Assembly: GCA_965219995.1 (NCBI GenBank)
Contig: CBDCOX010000002.1
Coordinates: 1-64,000, forward strand
Source: Candidatus Latescibacterota bacterium
GTDB lineage: Bacteria; Latescibacterota; UBA2968; GCA-2709665
DNA length: 64,000 nt
Reading direction: 5' to 3'
This document shows, piece by piece, positions 1,942-50,626 of this stretch. Within the stretch, counting starts at the first letter, position 1. The number at the start of each line of letters is the position of its first letter. The notes beneath the pieces are model-generated. The model was not told the origin of the DNA and made no database searches. It saw nothing but the letters and a program-made list of their open reading frames with translations. The translations under genes were made by a program, and so were the position numbers.

Positions 1942-2016
1942 TGGTGACCCCGAGGGGAGTCGAACCCCCGTTGCCGGGTTGAAAACCCGGTGTCCTAACC
2001 ACTGAACGACGGGGTC
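1942..2016 (-). tRNA. tRNA-Glu (TTC)
   Basis: Acceptor stem GACCCCG/CGGGGTC, anticodon arm CCGGG-TT TTC AA-CCCGG, TTCGA T-loop, encoded CCA. Confidence 0.97.
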
Positions 2017-2249: not shown

Positions 2250-2326
2250 GGGCGATTAGCTCAGCTGGTTAGAGCGCTGGTTTCACATACCAGAGGTCAC
2301 TGGTTCGAGTCCAGTATCGCCCACCA
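2250..2326 (+). tRNA. tRNA-Val (CAC)
   Basis: Acceptor GGGCGAT/ATCGCCC, anticodon arm CTGGT-TT CAC AT-ACCAG, TTCGA loop, CCA end. Confidence 0.97.
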
Positions 2327-2437: not shown

Positions 2438-3151
2438 ATGAAAGAAAGCCTGCTTAGACTTTTGAACCTGCAGCACATCGATACCGAATTGGACAAACTC
2501 AAAAAGGTGCAGTCAGATTTCCCTGAAGCGATCGCGGACCTTCGCGAAAAGCTGGAAACCGCGAAACAGGCGGTGGACGACAAGAAGCAGCAGGCTGCCG
2601 ACCTGGAAAAGAACCGCCGTCATCTGGAGGGCGAGCTGGAGACATTACAGGCTGATCTGAAGAAACACCAGGATCGACTGATGGAAGTGAAGACGAACCG
2701 GGAATACGATGCGCTCCAGATTGAAATCGAAGTACTGGGGAACCGCGCCGACGAGAGTGAGACCATGATCCTCGAGAGCATCGAGCAACACGACGACCTG
2801 AAGACAATGCTCGAGGAAGAAGAAAGCGCATACAAGGCGCTTGAAGCCGATTATCTCGGTCAGATAAAGGATCTCCAGGGTCGCCTGGACCTGGTGGACG
2901 GCGAGGCCAGCGGATGGCGGAAAAAACGATCGGTTGCCGAAGAATCAGTGGACAAACCGGTGCTGTCCAATTACAACCGGATCCGCAGCGTTGTGAGGGA
3001 CGGCGTTGCCGTGGTGCCGATCGGCAAGGGTTCCTGCGGCGGCTGCTTCAGACAACTGCCACCGCAGCTTCACGTGGAAGTCAGACGCCAGGACAGGATC
3101 ATCCGTTGCGAAAACTGCGGCCGGATGCTGGTGTGGCGGGAGGAGTCCTGA
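2438..3151 (+). CDS. Coiled-coil C4-type zinc ribbon protein (DUF164 family)
   Basis: Long coiled coil, NREYDAL, CGGC...CENCGR. GGAG RBS before ATG 2438. Usual position upstream of RNase H and rnpB. Confidence 0.9.
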   Translation: MKESLLRLLNLQHIDTELDKLKKVQSDFPEAIADLREKLETAKQAVDDKKQQAADLEKNRRHLEGELETLQADLKKHQDRLMEVKTNREYDALQIEIEVLGNRADESETMILESIEQHDDLKTMLEEEESAYKALEADYLGQIKDLQGRLDLVDGEASGWRKKRSVAEESVDKPVLSNYNRIRSVVRDGVAVVPIGKGSCGGCFRQLPPQLHVEVRRQDRIIRCENCGRMLVWREES

Positions 3152-3152
3152 C

Positions 3153-3575
3153 GTGACGGACAGAGAGACGATTACACTCTACGTGGACGGCGCGGCGAAG
3201 GGAAATCCCGGTCCCGCGGGCATCGGCGTCCGGGTCGAACTCAAGGGCGTGGTTCTGTCGGAGCATTCGGAATTCATCGGCGAAGCCACCAACAACGTCG
3301 CGGAGTACAAAGCGCTCATCTACGGGCTGGAAATCGTCCGAAGGCTGCGCGTAACCCGTGTCGACGCCGTCTCGGACAGCGAATTGATGGTCAGGCAGTT
3401 GAACGGAGAATATAAAGTCAAGAACTCGAAGCTGTTGCCGTTGTACGAATTCGTCATTGATATTGTCGGGTCGATGGACGGATTTACGATCCGGCACGTT
3501 TCGCGATCGGAAAACCGGCACGCCGACCGCCTGGCCAATAAGGGAATAACGGAGGCCTTGAAACGCAATTCGTGA
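3153..3575 (+). CDS. rnhA: Ribonuclease HI family protein
   Basis: YVDGAAKGNPGPAG, TNNVAEY, DSEL, NRHADRLAN motifs; GTG start at 3153. Confidence 0.9.
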   Translation: MTDRETITLYVDGAAKGNPGPAGIGVRVELKGVVLSEHSEFIGEATNNVAEYKALIYGLEIVRRLRVTRVDAVSDSELMVRQLNGEYKVKNSKLLPLYEFVIDIVGSMDGFTIRHVSRSENRHADRLANKGITEALKRNS

Positions 3576-3604
3576 GCCGCCGGGCGGTTCACGAATCCAC
3601 AATA

Positions 3605-4151
3605 CAGGCAAGCGGGCCGGATGGCCGCGCCCGTTAACAGTCCGTTGAAAAAGTCGCTCTGCAGGCGAGGCCGAGTCATTGTGGCCGAGGACTAGGCGCG
3701 CGACCGACGCGAATCCCTGGATTCGGGAAGGAGCGCAACGCCGTCATTCGGTCACAAGGGCCGGACGCAGCCCGGATGGACTTTATCAACGGGCTGCTTA
3801 TCGGGTGAGGAAAGTCCGAGCTCCAGAGGGCAGGATGCTGGGTAACTCCCAGTCGGGGCGACCCGAAGGAAAGTGCCACAGAGAACAGACCGCCAGCGGG
3901 CGAGACCACGGTTTCGTTGCGGGCAAGGGTGAAACGGCGGGGTAAGAGCCCACCGCGTTCCCGGAGACGGGAGCGGCACGGTAAACCCCATCCGGAGCAA
4001 GGCCAAATAGGAGCGGAGAGGCGGCCCGTCTCGTTACAACGCTCGGGTAGGCTGCGCAGAGGCGCCGGGCAACCGGCGTCCCAGATAAATGGCCATCCGT
4101 CCGGCGCACCGCGCCGGACGACAGAACTCGGCTTACAGGCCCGCTTGCCTG
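3605..4151 (+). ncRNA. rnpB: RNase P RNA, bacterial type A, with a greatly extended P3
   Basis: P1 CAGGCAAGCGGGCC (3605-3618) pairs with 4138-4151. P2 GGATGGCC/GGCCATCC. Conserved GAGGAAAGTCC, AGTGCCACAGA, GGGTGAAACG, GGTAAACCCC, GAGCAAG and ACAGAACTCGGCTTA. Confidence 0.97.
3637..3797. mobile_element. MITE-like element inserted in rnpB P3
   Basis: 19-bp imperfect TIRs (ACAGTCCGTTGAAAAAGTC versus reverse complement GCAGCCCGTTGATAAAGTC, 16/19). TTA direct repeat on both sides (3634-3636, 3798-3800). Confidence 0.75.
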
Positions 4152-4172
4152 AATCCCGTCCTGGAGCGCAGG

Positions 4173-4997
4173 TTGAGCTTTCTTCAGAAATTCCACCAGG
4201 CCGTCGACACCCGGAACAGCCGGGTGTGCGTAGGCCTGGACCCCGATCCTGAACGCCTTCCGGCCCACCTCAAAGGCGCCGCGAATCCGGTTCGTGCCTT
4301 TCTCAGGGAAATCGTCGCCGCCACACAGGACCTCGTGTGCGCCTACAAGCCCAACTTCGCCTTCTTCGGCGCACTGGGTCCGGCAGGCTGGCAGAGTCTC
4401 GAGGACGTCATCGGCGCCATTCCCGACACGATGCCCGTTCTGCTCGACTTCAAGGCCGGAGACATCGGCAACTCCTCCGCCCGTTACGCGCAGATGGCTT
4501 ACGACACGCTCGGCGTTGACGCGGTCACCGCAAACCCGCTCATGGGCTTCGACGCCATGGGCCCATTTCTCGACTACGACGACCGATGCGCGTTTCTGCT
4601 CTGCCTTACCTCCAACCCCGGGTCGGCAGACTTCCAGCGGCTCTCCACGCCGGACGGTCCTCTCTACCAACACGTTGCGAGGAAAGCGGCTGAATGGTCC
4701 GCCACGGGCCCATGCGGTCTGGTGGTCGGGGCGACGCACCCGCGGGAACTCGCGACAGTCCGAAGCATCGCACCCGAGCTTCCCATCCTGGTCCCCGGCG
4801 TCGGCGCCCAGATGGGCGATGCCGGCGCGGTGATCCGGTACGGCGCTGACCCCAACGGGGGCGGGTTGCTTGTCAACGCATCCAGGAGCGTGCTCTACGC
4901 CACGTCCGGCCGGGACTTCGCGGACGCTGCCCGGCAAGCCGCCGAGGGGCTTCGCGTCGAACTGGAACGGGAGCGGGCAGCATTGCCAATCGCGTAA
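4173..4997 (+). CDS. pyrF: Orotidine-5'-phosphate decarboxylase
   Basis: CVGLDP, YKPN, DFKAGDIGNS, GLVVGAT, LVPGVGAQ, NASRS. TTG start after GGAG. Confidence 0.95.
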   Translation: MSFLQKFHQAVDTRNSRVCVGLDPDPERLPAHLKGAANPVRAFLREIVAATQDLVCAYKPNFAFFGALGPAGWQSLEDVIGAIPDTMPVLLDFKAGDIGNSSARYAQMAYDTLGVDAVTANPLMGFDAMGPFLDYDDRCAFLLCLTSNPGSADFQRLSTPDGPLYQHVARKAAEWSATGPCGLVVGATHPRELATVRSIAPELPILVPGVGAQMGDAGAVIRYGADPNGGGLLVNASRSVLYATSGRDFADAARQAAEGLRVELERERAALPIA

Positions 4998-21664: not shown

Positions 21665-22135
21665 GAGCTATCAGCTATCGGCTTTCAGCAGTCAGCTTGA
21701 ATCAAAGTCGAAAATCAAATTCAAAATTCCCTTTTCCCCAAATCCCCTAAAGGCGGGGAGACGTTAGACGGGAGACGGGAGATGATATCAGTGCCATATG
21801 GTATTTCTTGTCGTTACGATAAAGGTAGAGAAACAGGCACGGTTAGCGTGAAAACACTGTGGTAACGTTATCCTCTACCGTCTCACGTCTACCCTCTTAC
21901 GGCATCTAGAATAGTCGCCGCTGGGCGCGGGGCCTGCCATATGCACAGCGCGAACACCCTCACAGGATGCACGGGATACTCTGGCCTGTCACCCTCAGTA
22001 GCAATTCAAACCGTGTAGCTTGACGGATCAGCGCGCTGTGCTCTGGTAGTTCTCTCGAGAGTCATCGCGCTGGAATCCCTATGGGCTTTCCGTGCGTGCG
22101 GAGCGCTTAGCATTCCGCCTACTGCTGTCAGCCAT
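21665..22135. repeat. Dispersed intergenic element, copy 1 (contains a nested cassette)
   Basis: Colinear blocks shared with 32500-32840, including AAAATCAAATTCAAAA..CCCTTTTCCCCAAAT, a ~60-bp AGTCGCCGCTGGGCGCGGGGCCTGCCA...CACAGGATGCAC block with 2 mismatches, TGCTCTGGTAG and ACTGCTGTCA. Confidence 0.85.
21748..21900. repeat. Cassette bounded by inverted heptamer (NNAGACG) arrays
   Basis: Left end GGAGACG TTAGACG GGAGACG GGAGATG; right end TCTACCG TCTCACG TCTACCC. Confidence 0.75.
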
Positions 22136-32499: not shown

Positions 32500-32840
32500 A
32501 CAGCTGTTAGCCGTCGGATTGAAGCAAAAGCGAGAATCAAAAATCAAATTCAAAACCCCCTTTTCCCCAAATTCCCTGCCTCCGGCGGGTTCCTTTTGAA
32601 GCGACCAAAAGGAACCAAAAGTCGCCGCTGGGCGCGGGGCCTGCCACAGGCACAGCGCGAACACCCTCACAGGATGCACAGAACCTGCTGCCCTGACACC
32701 CGAGGAGCCACATCGATTCGCGTTGCTGGACGGAATCGCGCGCTCTGCTCTGGTAGCCCTCTTGAAAGGCTATCCATACGTGTATTCATTCGTCTTCTGT
32801 GAGGGAGGAGCAGACTGCTGTCAACGAATGGCTTTCAGCC
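32500..32840. repeat. Dispersed intergenic element, copy 2
   Basis: Colinear with 21665-22135. Contains hairpin GGTTCCTTTTG-AAGCGAC-CAAAAGGAACC (32588-32617). Confidence 0.85.
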
Positions 32841-49598: not shown

Positions 49599-49852
49599 TA
49601 CAGGCGCCTTTTGCGTCTTCTTCGGCAGATTACCATGGAACAGCACAGAGAGTTCGCGTTCGAGAAGTCCCGCGTGTGTGCCTGGGAGAGGGCTTGAGGA
49701 TACGCCGGTGGGAGGGCGTATGCGCCGTAACGAAGTTGCATGCGGCTGCAGGCGGACCGTTAGAAGGGGCGGGCCGGCAGGCAAGGAGATCTCGACGCGG
49801 GGAGACGGGATGAATCGCCGGAAGAATGGCGAGGGTTTCTATTGGCAGGACA

Positions 49853-50626
49853 CTAATTCCCCCATGCCTCCCGGACCCACGGCACGGCCGCGCGCAAAGG
49901 CGTGATGAACAACTCGATCTGGTAATGCGTCACGTCCTGGACGACAATCATCTCTATCTGAACGTCCGCCTCTTTCAGGGCCCGCACGGTCGTCTCCACG
50001 GGTTCGAACGGAATCACCTCATCGGCGACGCTGTGGATGACCAGCAGGGGAACCTGCCAGTCGACCTCGACGGCATTCTCTTCCGGCACCGCGGCCATGG
50101 GGATGGCCGCCCGGAACATGTCCGGGTGCCGCGCCGCCATATACCAGGCGCCCCGCCCGCCCATGCTGAAACCGGTCACAAGCGTCCTGGTTTCGTCGAT
50201 CATGTAGTTGGCCTTGATTGCCCGGATCAGATCCAGCACATTCTGTTCGCTTTCCGGGTTGTCCCAGCCCTGAACCACCGCTTCAGGCGCCACGATGATC
50301 GCCCCGAGATCCTCCAGCGCGGGCCTGATCAGGGCCTCCAGCAATCGGCTGCCGTAATACGGCACGATCACACCGCCGTAATGCAGCGACAGAATGAGCG
50401 GCGTCGGCTGCCCGGCGTCGAACCCGGACGGTATGAAGATCGTGTACCGCTGGTTTCCGGGCGGCAGCACTCTGTTGTGAATGCCGGGTGTCCGGGGCAT
50501 CCCTTCGTCTGCGGGCCCTGCCGGATCGTCGGACCCGCAGGCTGCCGTCGCGGCTGCAAGCGCTGCCGCCAGCAACCAGTGGACGGCTGGCGATTTTTTG
50601 TTTAACCCCCGGTTTGCGTTTATCAT
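49853..50626 (-). CDS. Exported alpha/beta-hydrolase (esterase/PHB depolymerase-like), possible lipoprotein
   Basis: TAAC lipobox-like, TGFSMGG nucleophile, D and H triad residues. Confidence 0.85.
   Translation of the reverse strand: MINANRGLNKKSPAVHWLLAAALAAATAACGSDDPAGPADEGMPRTPGIHNRVLPPGNQRYTIFIPSGFDAGQPTPLILSLHYGGVIVPYYGSRLLEALIRPALEDLGAIIVAPEAVVQGWDNPESEQNVLDLIRAIKANYMIDETRTLVTGFSMGGRGAWYMAARHPDMFRAAIPMAAVPEENAVEVDWQVPLLVIHSVADEVIPFEPVETTVRALKEADVQIEMIVVQDVTHYQIELFITPLRAAVPWVREAWGN

Follow-up and report, generated by a model that had tools for sequence, protein, structure and literature searches.

The gene for the RNA of RNase P, rnpB, poses a simple question of space in a Candidatus Latescibacterota bacterium. 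Between helix P2 and the conserved GAGGAAAGTCC at which the P4 region of the catalytic core begins, 180 nucleotides (nts; 3627–3806) intervene, versus 13–14 nts in relatives whose site is empty. What fills this gap, how did it arrive there, and how does an essential ribozyme accommodate it? All positions refer to the window, the 64,000-nt stretch of contig CBDCOX010000002.1 that was analyzed. A first-pass annotation of this window had remarked that the ~180 nts lie far above the typical spacing and had attributed them to a non-autonomous transposable element accommodated as an extension of helix P3. Both statements stand: the element occurs in 14 full-length copies in the genome, one of which occupies the single, intact rnpB. 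The explanation we favor, at a probability of roughly 0.85, is that a non-autonomous miniature inverted-repeat transposable element (MITE) transposed into the P3 loop of the sole, intact rnpB, where it folds upon itself and is tolerated.

The rnpB gene and its annotation

The gene runs from 3605 to 4151 on the forward strand and is a complete bacterial type A RNase P RNA gene of 547 nts, insert included. Read from the sequence, the P1 5′ strand CAGGCAAGCGGGCC (3605–3618) is complementary at 14/14 positions to GGCCCGCTTGCCTG (4138–4151), and the P2 5′ strand GGATGGCC (3619–3626) is the perfect complement, over 8 bp, of GGCCATCC (4091–4098); both pairings are present in the centroid fold of the full 547-nt RNA. 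The native P3 helix follows, its 5′ strand CGCCCG (3628–3633, forward strand), homologous to CGCCC in all relatives, pairing with its partner CGGGTG (3802–3807). GAGGAAAGTCC (3807–3817) receives top posterior probability against the RF00010 consensus and is invariant in all 19 aligned genomes; the same holds for the core sequence GAGGAAAGUCC and for the ACAGAACUCGGCUUACAG region of P4. The RF00010 match as a whole scores 259.1 bits, where the gathering score is 100, with the core aligned at high posterior probability, and the earlier description of the catalytic core as intact is borne out.

The Rfam model, which had been suggested as a means of placing the insertion, serves well for the core and misplaces the 5′ end. 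Its match begins at 3764, inside the element, and non-canonical pairs are marked in the resulting false P1/P2. The wrong anchor is a 13-nt look-alike of the true P1/P2 strand (3767–3779, forward strand), a direct repeat agreeing with 3612–3624 at 11/13 positions. In relatives the model begins at the counterpart of 3609, and the first 28 nts of rnpB are the same here as in those relatives whose Rfam hits begin there. Scores among the 14 congeners are 286–308 bits in 13, while G003, which also bears a long insert, scores 259.1. Since the anchor lies inside the element, automatic annotation would report the gene as 5′-truncated and starting at 3764.

This apparent truncation, and the fact that misassembly is common at repeats, might suggest that rnpB is a disrupted pseudogene or that the insertion is an artifact of assembly. 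Either is very improbable. The true P1 and P2 5′ strands are intact (3605–3626), RF00010 matches nowhere else in the genome, and rnpA is encoded there too (PF00825, 54.8 bits). Over the 377 positions compared outside the P3 filling, the gene is identical to that of congener G010 at 375 and to that of G001 at 371; identity is 94.2–97.1% to the other congeners and 86.7–90.2% to four other genera. Because 375/377 nts outside P3 match G010, rnpB, judged by its sequence, is not decaying, and we infer that it is active in the cell. An artifact is further contradicted by read data. Four of 24 listed sequencing runs were compared, three of RNA (X1, X2, and X5) and one, X19, whose kind is unrecorded. 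Contigs of X19 span both junctions with 0 mismatches (3500–3664 and 3767–3893), and its depth is even, ~80 over rnpB and 62–83 in the flanks, so the run behaves as DNA; it may be the source sample of the assembly. Moreover, inserts at the same loop occur in independent assemblies of other species.

The neighbors on either side lie on the same strand. Upstream is an RNase H-like gene (3006–3575; Pfam RVT_3, 4e-19, and RNase_H, 2.3e-10), and downstream is an orotidine 5′-phosphate decarboxylase gene (4089–4997; Pfam OMPdecase, 6.6e-30, with the match starting at residue 44). The listed start of the decarboxylase open reading frame (ORF) overlaps the 3′ end of rnpB; the true start is therefore probably further downstream. 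A simple scan, uninformative for this phylum, returned neither a sigma-70-like promoter nor a terminator for rnpB.

The insert and its family

The insert is a near-palindrome, CAG...CTG, of 159 bp (3638–3796, forward strand). Its terminal inverted repeats, CAGTCCGTTGAAAAAGTC on the left (3638–3655) and GACTTTATCAACGGGCTG on the right (3779–3796), are 18 nts each and complementary at 16/18 positions (89%); they were the one inverted repeat returned by the repeat search and are conserved in all 14 full-length copies. The element had initially been outlined as 161 bp (3637–3797) with 19-bp repeats matching at 16/19. The insertion and the inverted repeat are real, and the extents require trimming: the conserved unit is the 159 bp given above, and the nineteenth position of the repeat is a mismatched outer base. 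TTA does occur on both sides, as described earlier, at 3634–3636 and 3798–3800. Family alignment places the 4-bp target duplication at TTAA on the left (3634–3637) and CTTA on the right (3797–3800), which agree at 2/4 positions; the duplication is thus not clean at this copy. Within the right end lies a 29-nt terminal sub-hairpin, CAGCCCG...CGGGCTG (3768–3796, forward strand), which is also found in the P3 loops of three congeners and, as a solo copy flanked by TTAA/TTAA, at G000:C2:360091-360119 of the present genome (G000).

That the element belongs to a family is evident from the genome itself. A search of the whole of G000 (5.44 Mb in 2 contigs) listed 55 matches with E values of 10 or less. 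A separate BLAST search produced 43 rows, made up of 14 full-length copies (that in rnpB included), 28 partial ones, and 1 reverse-strand self-match. The 13 other full-length copies are 84.5–96.9% identical to that in rnpB. All are without transposase coding capacity at the family's length of 159–160 bp. Alignment of the 14 copies reveals N-T-A-N flanks, with a perfect 4-bp direct duplication in 8 (ATAG twice, TTAG twice, CTAA, TTAT, GTAA, and CTAT). Every one of the 14 congeners carries the family, whereas a search of 16 more distant relatives detected it in none.

Public genomes extend the picture. At least 119 loci contain a 23-nt internal motif of the element; among those listed, 105 have both ends recognizable, 88 of these are 150–170 bp long, and 72 measure exactly 160 bp. 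The carriers, among the matches listed, are uncultured-bacterium genome bins labeled as Candidatus Latescibacterota, as Gemmatimonadota, or with no more than "uncultured bacterium." In the 88 listed copies, the two flanks are identical at 4/4 positions in 41, at 3/4 in 31, at 2/4 in 11, and at 1/4 in 5; when flanks were paired at random over 1000 trials, perfect pairs averaged 9.6 and never exceeded 18. The target consensus is YTAR, the commonest targets among the 88 being CTAA (13), TTAG (12), and TTAA (7). The insert is therefore a MITE: its terminal inverted repeats measure 18 bp, the duplication that its family makes is 4 bp long with consensus YTAR, and the family is specific to the genus. 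The 3-bp TWA duplication proposed at first is superseded by this tetranucleotide; reading TTA/TTA as the duplication fits the rnpB copy and does not fit the family. Rfam searches of 17 other MITE loci detected no RNA genes and thus give no hint of a preference of the family for them, and a plasmid collection yielded no match to the element.

The family structure also settles whether the long P3 might instead be an ancestral helix of the lineage. P3 does vary in length among bacteria, and the first-pass annotation had itself named an element without further copies, together with an equally long P3 in all relatives, as the pattern that would mark such a helix. The 13 additional copies with target duplications are incompatible with it, as are the loops of only 4–5 nts in four other genera and two congeners, and the shorter inserts elsewhere in the genus; the ancestral helix is refuted.

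A transposase sharing the ends of the MITE was looked for in G000 and in the genus. No inverted pair of MITE ends occurs at insertion-sequence spacing in G000, allowing up to 4 mismatches in 18. Transposases of the DDE_Tnp_1 type (PF01609) are present in 12 of the 15 genomes of the genus, and MITE ends surround none of the 30 such loci fetched. Several apparent partners were examined and set aside. A candidate autonomous element at G000:C2:3019962-3021579 consists of two degenerate ends 1.6 kb apart that enclose no transposase; the ORF within is presumably zinc-type alcohol dehydrogenase-like, as read from its translation. Two MITE halves 4.7 kb apart (1728149–1733028) have housekeeping genes between them and are not a mobile element, and further matches resembling element ends (CCGTCCGGTGAAAACGCC) are 126-nt periodic repeats in coding regions. 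Two insertion sequences of G000 were rejected as partners because their ends differ. The first, of the IS1380 family, is present in five 1.56-kb copies, with a transposase scoring 216.7 bits against NF033539 (cut-off 180) and ends beginning CCTCAATG; the second, a DDE_3 element in four copies, likewise has ends unlike those of the MITE. The IS1380-family element makes 4-bp YTAR duplications of the same length and consensus as the MITE, whereas the ends differ (CCTCAATGCGAAAA vs. CAGTCCGTTGAAAA). The duplication alone therefore cannot name the family of the MITE, and its assignment as IS5-like is unproven.

The predicted fold offers a rationale for how such an insertion could be borne. The region 3628–3807 (180 nts) forms one long predicted hairpin continuing the native CGCCCG/CGGGTG stem, at −99.8 kcal/mol versus a shuffle mean of −66.8 (z = −7.3), and 0/200 shuffles are as stable. 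The first reading, in which the two inverted repeats form a duplex that prolongs P3, is upheld by this prediction. In the fold of the full 547-nt RNA, P3 and the insert hairpin are unchanged (z = −7.7) and P1 closes the molecule. The predicted stem is far from regular, with many bulges and mismatches. By itself, the MITE at rnpB folds at −87.6 kcal/mol, within the range of the 14 copies (−79.4 to −94.3); compared with these, it exhibits no special stabilization. It is also ordinary in sequence, with 7 differences from the consensus of the other 13 copies, which themselves have 1–19.

These features suggest a mechanism. A 159-bp MITE of the genus-specific family would have jumped into the YTAR-like loop of a very short P3 hairpin. 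The inverted repeats would then pair, as would the TA of both flanks, giving a ~70-bp imperfect hairpin stacked on P3. With a near-perfect palindrome and pairing TA-centered flanks, the transcript would fold up by itself, leaving P1, P2, P4, and the remaining ribozyme undisturbed. Predicted folds and core conservation together argue for accommodation of the insert in P3 with P1, P2, and the core in place, and the hairpin would be part of the primary transcript. The insertion would be tolerated because the tip of P3 is variable in length and bears no conserved core sequence, and the insert is probably neutral or slightly costly baggage. With time, such inserts would shrink through internal deletions without a break in the helix, from 159 through 118, 53, 29, and 10 nts to a 5-nt loop.

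P3 loops across the genus

This sequence of sizes is drawn from the relatives. RF00010 matched in all 31 genomes compared, namely G000, 14 congeners, and 16 more distant relatives. In four other genera of the family, CGCCC and GGGTG enclose a loop of 4 nts (AACA, GATA, GGCA, or GTTA), and in the 12 genomes of the sister family the arrangement is GTCCC-TTTT/TTTC-GGGAT. Within the genus, G001 and G012 have 5-nt loops (ATTTA and TTTTC). These two represent the empty allele that had been anticipated in close relatives, except that the single TTA expected there is not what they contain. In the remaining 12 of the 14 congeners, an element-derived insert sits at this same P3 loop. Seven (G002, G004, G006, G007, G009, G011, and G014) retain a remnant of 10 nts, either CAGTCCGCTG or a close variant, with GTAT on either side in G002. 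In G005 and G010 the insert is the 29-nt terminal sub-hairpin, and in G008 the same 29 nts stand in reverse orientation between ATAA and TTAT. G013 has 53 nts composed of both element ends joined, with TTAT at each side, and G003 has 118 nts whose ends are the same and whose interior has diverged. The full 159 nts are found in G000. For all of these inserts, the predicted fold prolongs P3 without a break. The genus-wide series of element remnants at one P3 loop is new here.

Persistence of a helix in so many species might indicate co-option of the extended P3, which could bind a protein, say, or serve as a stabilizing element. In line with this, 12 of the 14 congeners keep some extension, always as a helix, and in the 10-nt group one pair alternates among U-G, C-G, and G-C. 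That pair is the only one in the group to change on both sides, however, and covariation is not significant: 93.9% of cells pair, and 81/500 shuffles score as high. The inserts range from 10 to 159 nts and share no conserved loop or internal motif across size classes, the extension has been lost in two congeners, and the copy in rnpB is no more stable than copies elsewhere in the genome. Co-option is accordingly improbable.

The history of the loop was addressed with a maximum-likelihood tree of 3207 aligned columns, covering rnpB and its flanks in one 3.2-kb locus. It groups the genomes as (G000,(G001,G010)), with support of 100 and 99, and places the seven 10-nt genomes together with G005 in a clade with support of 100, G005 being sister to G002 (100); deeper nodes reach only 55–77%. 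The right junction, CTGCT(T/G)ATCGGGTG, is common to G000 and G010 only, so the insert predates their split. On this tree, G010 would have lost the left 130 nts of the insert and G001 nearly all of it.

Did the element arrive once, or has the loop been hit repeatedly? It is rather probable that insertion favors the P3 loop, which would have been struck independently at least 2 times in the genus, a reading compatible with the main explanation. The 29-nt insert of G008 is oriented opposite to those of G005 and G010, and G005, despite its insert of right-end type, falls with G002 (bootstrap 100) inside the 10-nt CAGTCCGCTG group. The copy in G000 is family-typical in sequence, with the few differences from consensus given above, despite flanking DNA that is ~20% diverged across the genus. 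The sub-hairpin also exists alone with its own TTAA/TTAA duplication, and the outgroup P3 loop read with its closing bases is TTAG or ATAG, near the preferred YTAR target. Other observations count against repeated arrival, several of them in favor of a single old insertion followed by erosion. The flanks are alike in all species (NTAT-like), as one event would also leave them. The 118-nt insert of G003 has no close copy elsewhere, the best full-length match being 72–73%, which fits old divergence in place, and an inversion internal to the hairpin could produce a reversed loop such as that of G008. The tree itself represents a single locus with weakly supported deep nodes. Finally, the loops of both empty congeners are 1 nt longer than the 4 nts of the other genera, a hint that an ancestor with an occupied loop lost its insert secondarily.

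Possible fates of the hairpin and its precedents

What becomes of the hairpin once transcribed? Retention of the full insert in the mature RNA is marginally favored. In 23S rRNA, intervening sequences are excised by RNase III, leaving fragmented rRNA. A similar fate is conceivable here: the hairpin would be removed or cut after transcription by RNase III, as with those intervening sequences, giving a two-piece RNA in which a short 5′ piece (the P1, P2, and P3 5′ strands) and a 3′ piece of ~350–450 nts are joined by P1–P3. The predicted stem is long and mostly double-stranded, and RNase III is encoded in the genome (PF14622, 122.1 bits). The hairpins of Correia MITEs are bound by RNase III, which cleaves or protects them (PMC2649163), and Coxiella carries a 428-nt selfish element in helix 45 of its precursor 23S rRNA (PMC4990558). 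With the enzyme encoded and MITE hairpins among its known targets, a cut, two-piece RNA is a serious rival to retention, albeit a tentative one. The many bulges and mismatches that interrupt the stem speak against it, as do the 10–29-nt remnants of the relatives, which are too short for typical RNase III substrates and yet are kept as helices. Whatever probability these two leave belongs to other fates.

RNA sequencing runs bear on the relatives rather than on the G000 allele itself, for which none of the three RNA runs (X1, X2, and X5) yielded a contig. In X5, rnpB is G010-like and is represented by one 728-nt contig that jumps from 3632 to 3767 with two letters between; in X2, it is G001-like, in one 244-nt contig. 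RNA contigs over 3635–3796 in these three runs were considered as the rnpB insert and set aside: with 3–8 mismatches, they are read as other copies, as is also indicated by the loose ends in X5, which at both element boundaries enter unrelated sequence.

Repetitive DNA has been accommodated in RNase P RNA genes before. Vioque is said to have reported, in 1997, short tandem repeats of the heptamer type in cyanobacterial rnpB. They resemble the present case in where they lie and differ in kind, being tandem heptamers rather than an inverted-repeat transposable element; the first-pass annotation had counted cyanobacteria, along with Rickettsia, among bacteria with palindromic repeats in rnpB, and by the title of that work the cyanobacterial repeats are tandem. 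For Rickettsia the statement is sound. Rickettsia palindromic elements (RPEs) lie in the genes for M1 (RNase P) RNA and tmRNA, a finding of Ogata et al. (2002) that a review describes (PMC2229807). Like the MITE, an RPE is a short palindromic mobile repeat in the gene of the RNase P ribozyme and is presumed neutral and tolerated (PMC2229807). The two differ in phylum and belong to unrelated families, carriers of the MITE being titled Candidatus Latescibacterota among the matches listed. The target duplication is a clear 4-bp YTAR for the MITE, whereas that of RPEs is entered as uncertain in the review's table, and its passages on RPEs describe no set of remnants at a single loop across a genus, such as that found here (PMC2229807).

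Two further systems share features with the insert. Intervening sequences of 23S rRNA are cut from the precursor and their host RNA is rRNA, whereas the host here is RNase P RNA. What they share with the insert is that a selfish or extra stem-loop occupies a peripheral helix of a structural RNA that the cell cannot do without (PMC4990558). The Correia or NEMIS elements of Neisseria are MITEs ~150 bp long, bounded by terminal inverted repeats and by duplications that contain TA (PMC2229807), and the hairpins of their transcripts are targeted by RNase III (PMC2649163). They reside in or beside mRNAs and affect expression; the pertinent sections of these two papers do not report them inside rnpB (PMC2649163; PMC2229807). 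Our search for literature linking rnpB or RNase P RNA with a MITE, palindromic element, or inverted repeat found none except Rickettsia, via the review, and a 2024 review of prokaryotic MITEs makes no mention of RNase P, rnpB, tmRNA, or ribozyme. A mobile palindromic element in RNase P RNA is therefore of a kind already known, with Rickettsia as precedent. What is new here is another phylum, a MITE family that is defined and whose duplications are clear, the placement in the P3 loop, and the genus-wide remnants.

The carriers are uncultured, marine, host-associated bacteria. Since the organisms are uncultured, tests need heterologous or in vitro systems, and for these the congeners provide a ready-made series of P3 lengths (159, 118, 53, 29, 10, 5, and 4 nts) with which to study folding, protein binding, and activity. 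On the practical side, automatic annotation will give a truncated rnpB from 3764. The locus is a well-documented case of a transposable element in an essential ribozyme, and it shows which part of RNase P RNA absorbs ~160 nts. The weight of the case would rise with proof of an RNA that is split in nature or of a loop that is truly a hot spot for insertion. A doubtful but consequential combination of the two, in which RNase III cuts the hairpin to leave a split RNase P RNA held together by P1–P3 and the P3 loop is a recurrent landing pad, would, if true, turn a single genus into a natural series in which P3 spans 4 to 179 nts.

The 5′ end of rnpB and its P3 loop

The RNase P RNA gene (rnpB; window 3605-4151, plus strand), downstream of two tRNA genes at window 1945-2016 (minus strand) and 2250-2323 (plus strand), carries a 159-bp inverted-repeat element, the MITE (window 3638-3796), in its P3 loop. 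The Rfam model RF00010 sets the 5′ end of the gene within this element, at window 3764-3781, on what is a chance look-alike of the real P1/P2 5′ strand (window 3605-3626), with which it agrees at 11 of 13 positions. As a result of this misplacement, automatic annotation would yield an rnpB truncated by ~160 nt.

The P3 region also takes another form in X19, a sequencing run of unrecorded kind that behaves as DNA. One of its contigs bridges window 3633 to 3802 via a different 19-nt filling, at a depth of 6.1 versus ~80 for the main organism; the sample therefore contains a related organism whose P3 is different again.

Partial and split copies of the element

A 29-nt terminal segment of the MITE, bounded by 7-bp inverted ends (CAGCCCG/CGGGCTG), recurs as solo copies on contig C2 of the source genome, at 360091-360119, 2199789-2199817 and 1010330-1010358. 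Since one solo copy is flanked by a perfect TTAA/TTAA duplication, this end may also be mobile as a mini-element. Elsewhere on C2, two overlapping MITE halves in the same orientation (1728149-1728255 and 1732954-1733028) lie 4.7 kb apart, separated by signal peptidase, oxidoreductase, racemase-like and creatininase-like genes, an arrangement that may reflect rearrangement between copies.

Other repeats and insertion sequences

A second abundant repeat family of ~165 nt, its copies 90-99% identical, occupies C2 5006524-5006690 and at least 18 further sites, with a partial copy at window 49795-49855; at times it is fused to ends of the rnpB-type MITE. Long arrays of 126-nt periodic repeats within coding regions (C2 1776797-1789932 and several others) were detected because one of their motifs resembles the MITE end. 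A multi-copy module of 150-440 nt (70-88% identity; window 21673-22049 and 32535-32769; ~98 matches genome-wide) is probably a repeated protein-coding domain.

Insertion sequences of the genome include an IS1380-family element of 1.56 kb, whose ends read CCTCAATG and which makes 4-bp YTAR duplications; it is present in five copies (C2 near 648501, 1604503, 2743473, 3502314 and 4015537). A DDE_3 element of 1.16 kb, whose ends read CTAGTACTTA, is present in four.

Phylum labels of the carriers

Among the matches listed (public contig loci L092-L171), genomes with the same MITE family as the rnpB insert are assigned by their titles to two different phyla, some to Candidatus Latescibacterota and others to Gemmatimonadota; one or both of these assignments are probably wrong.
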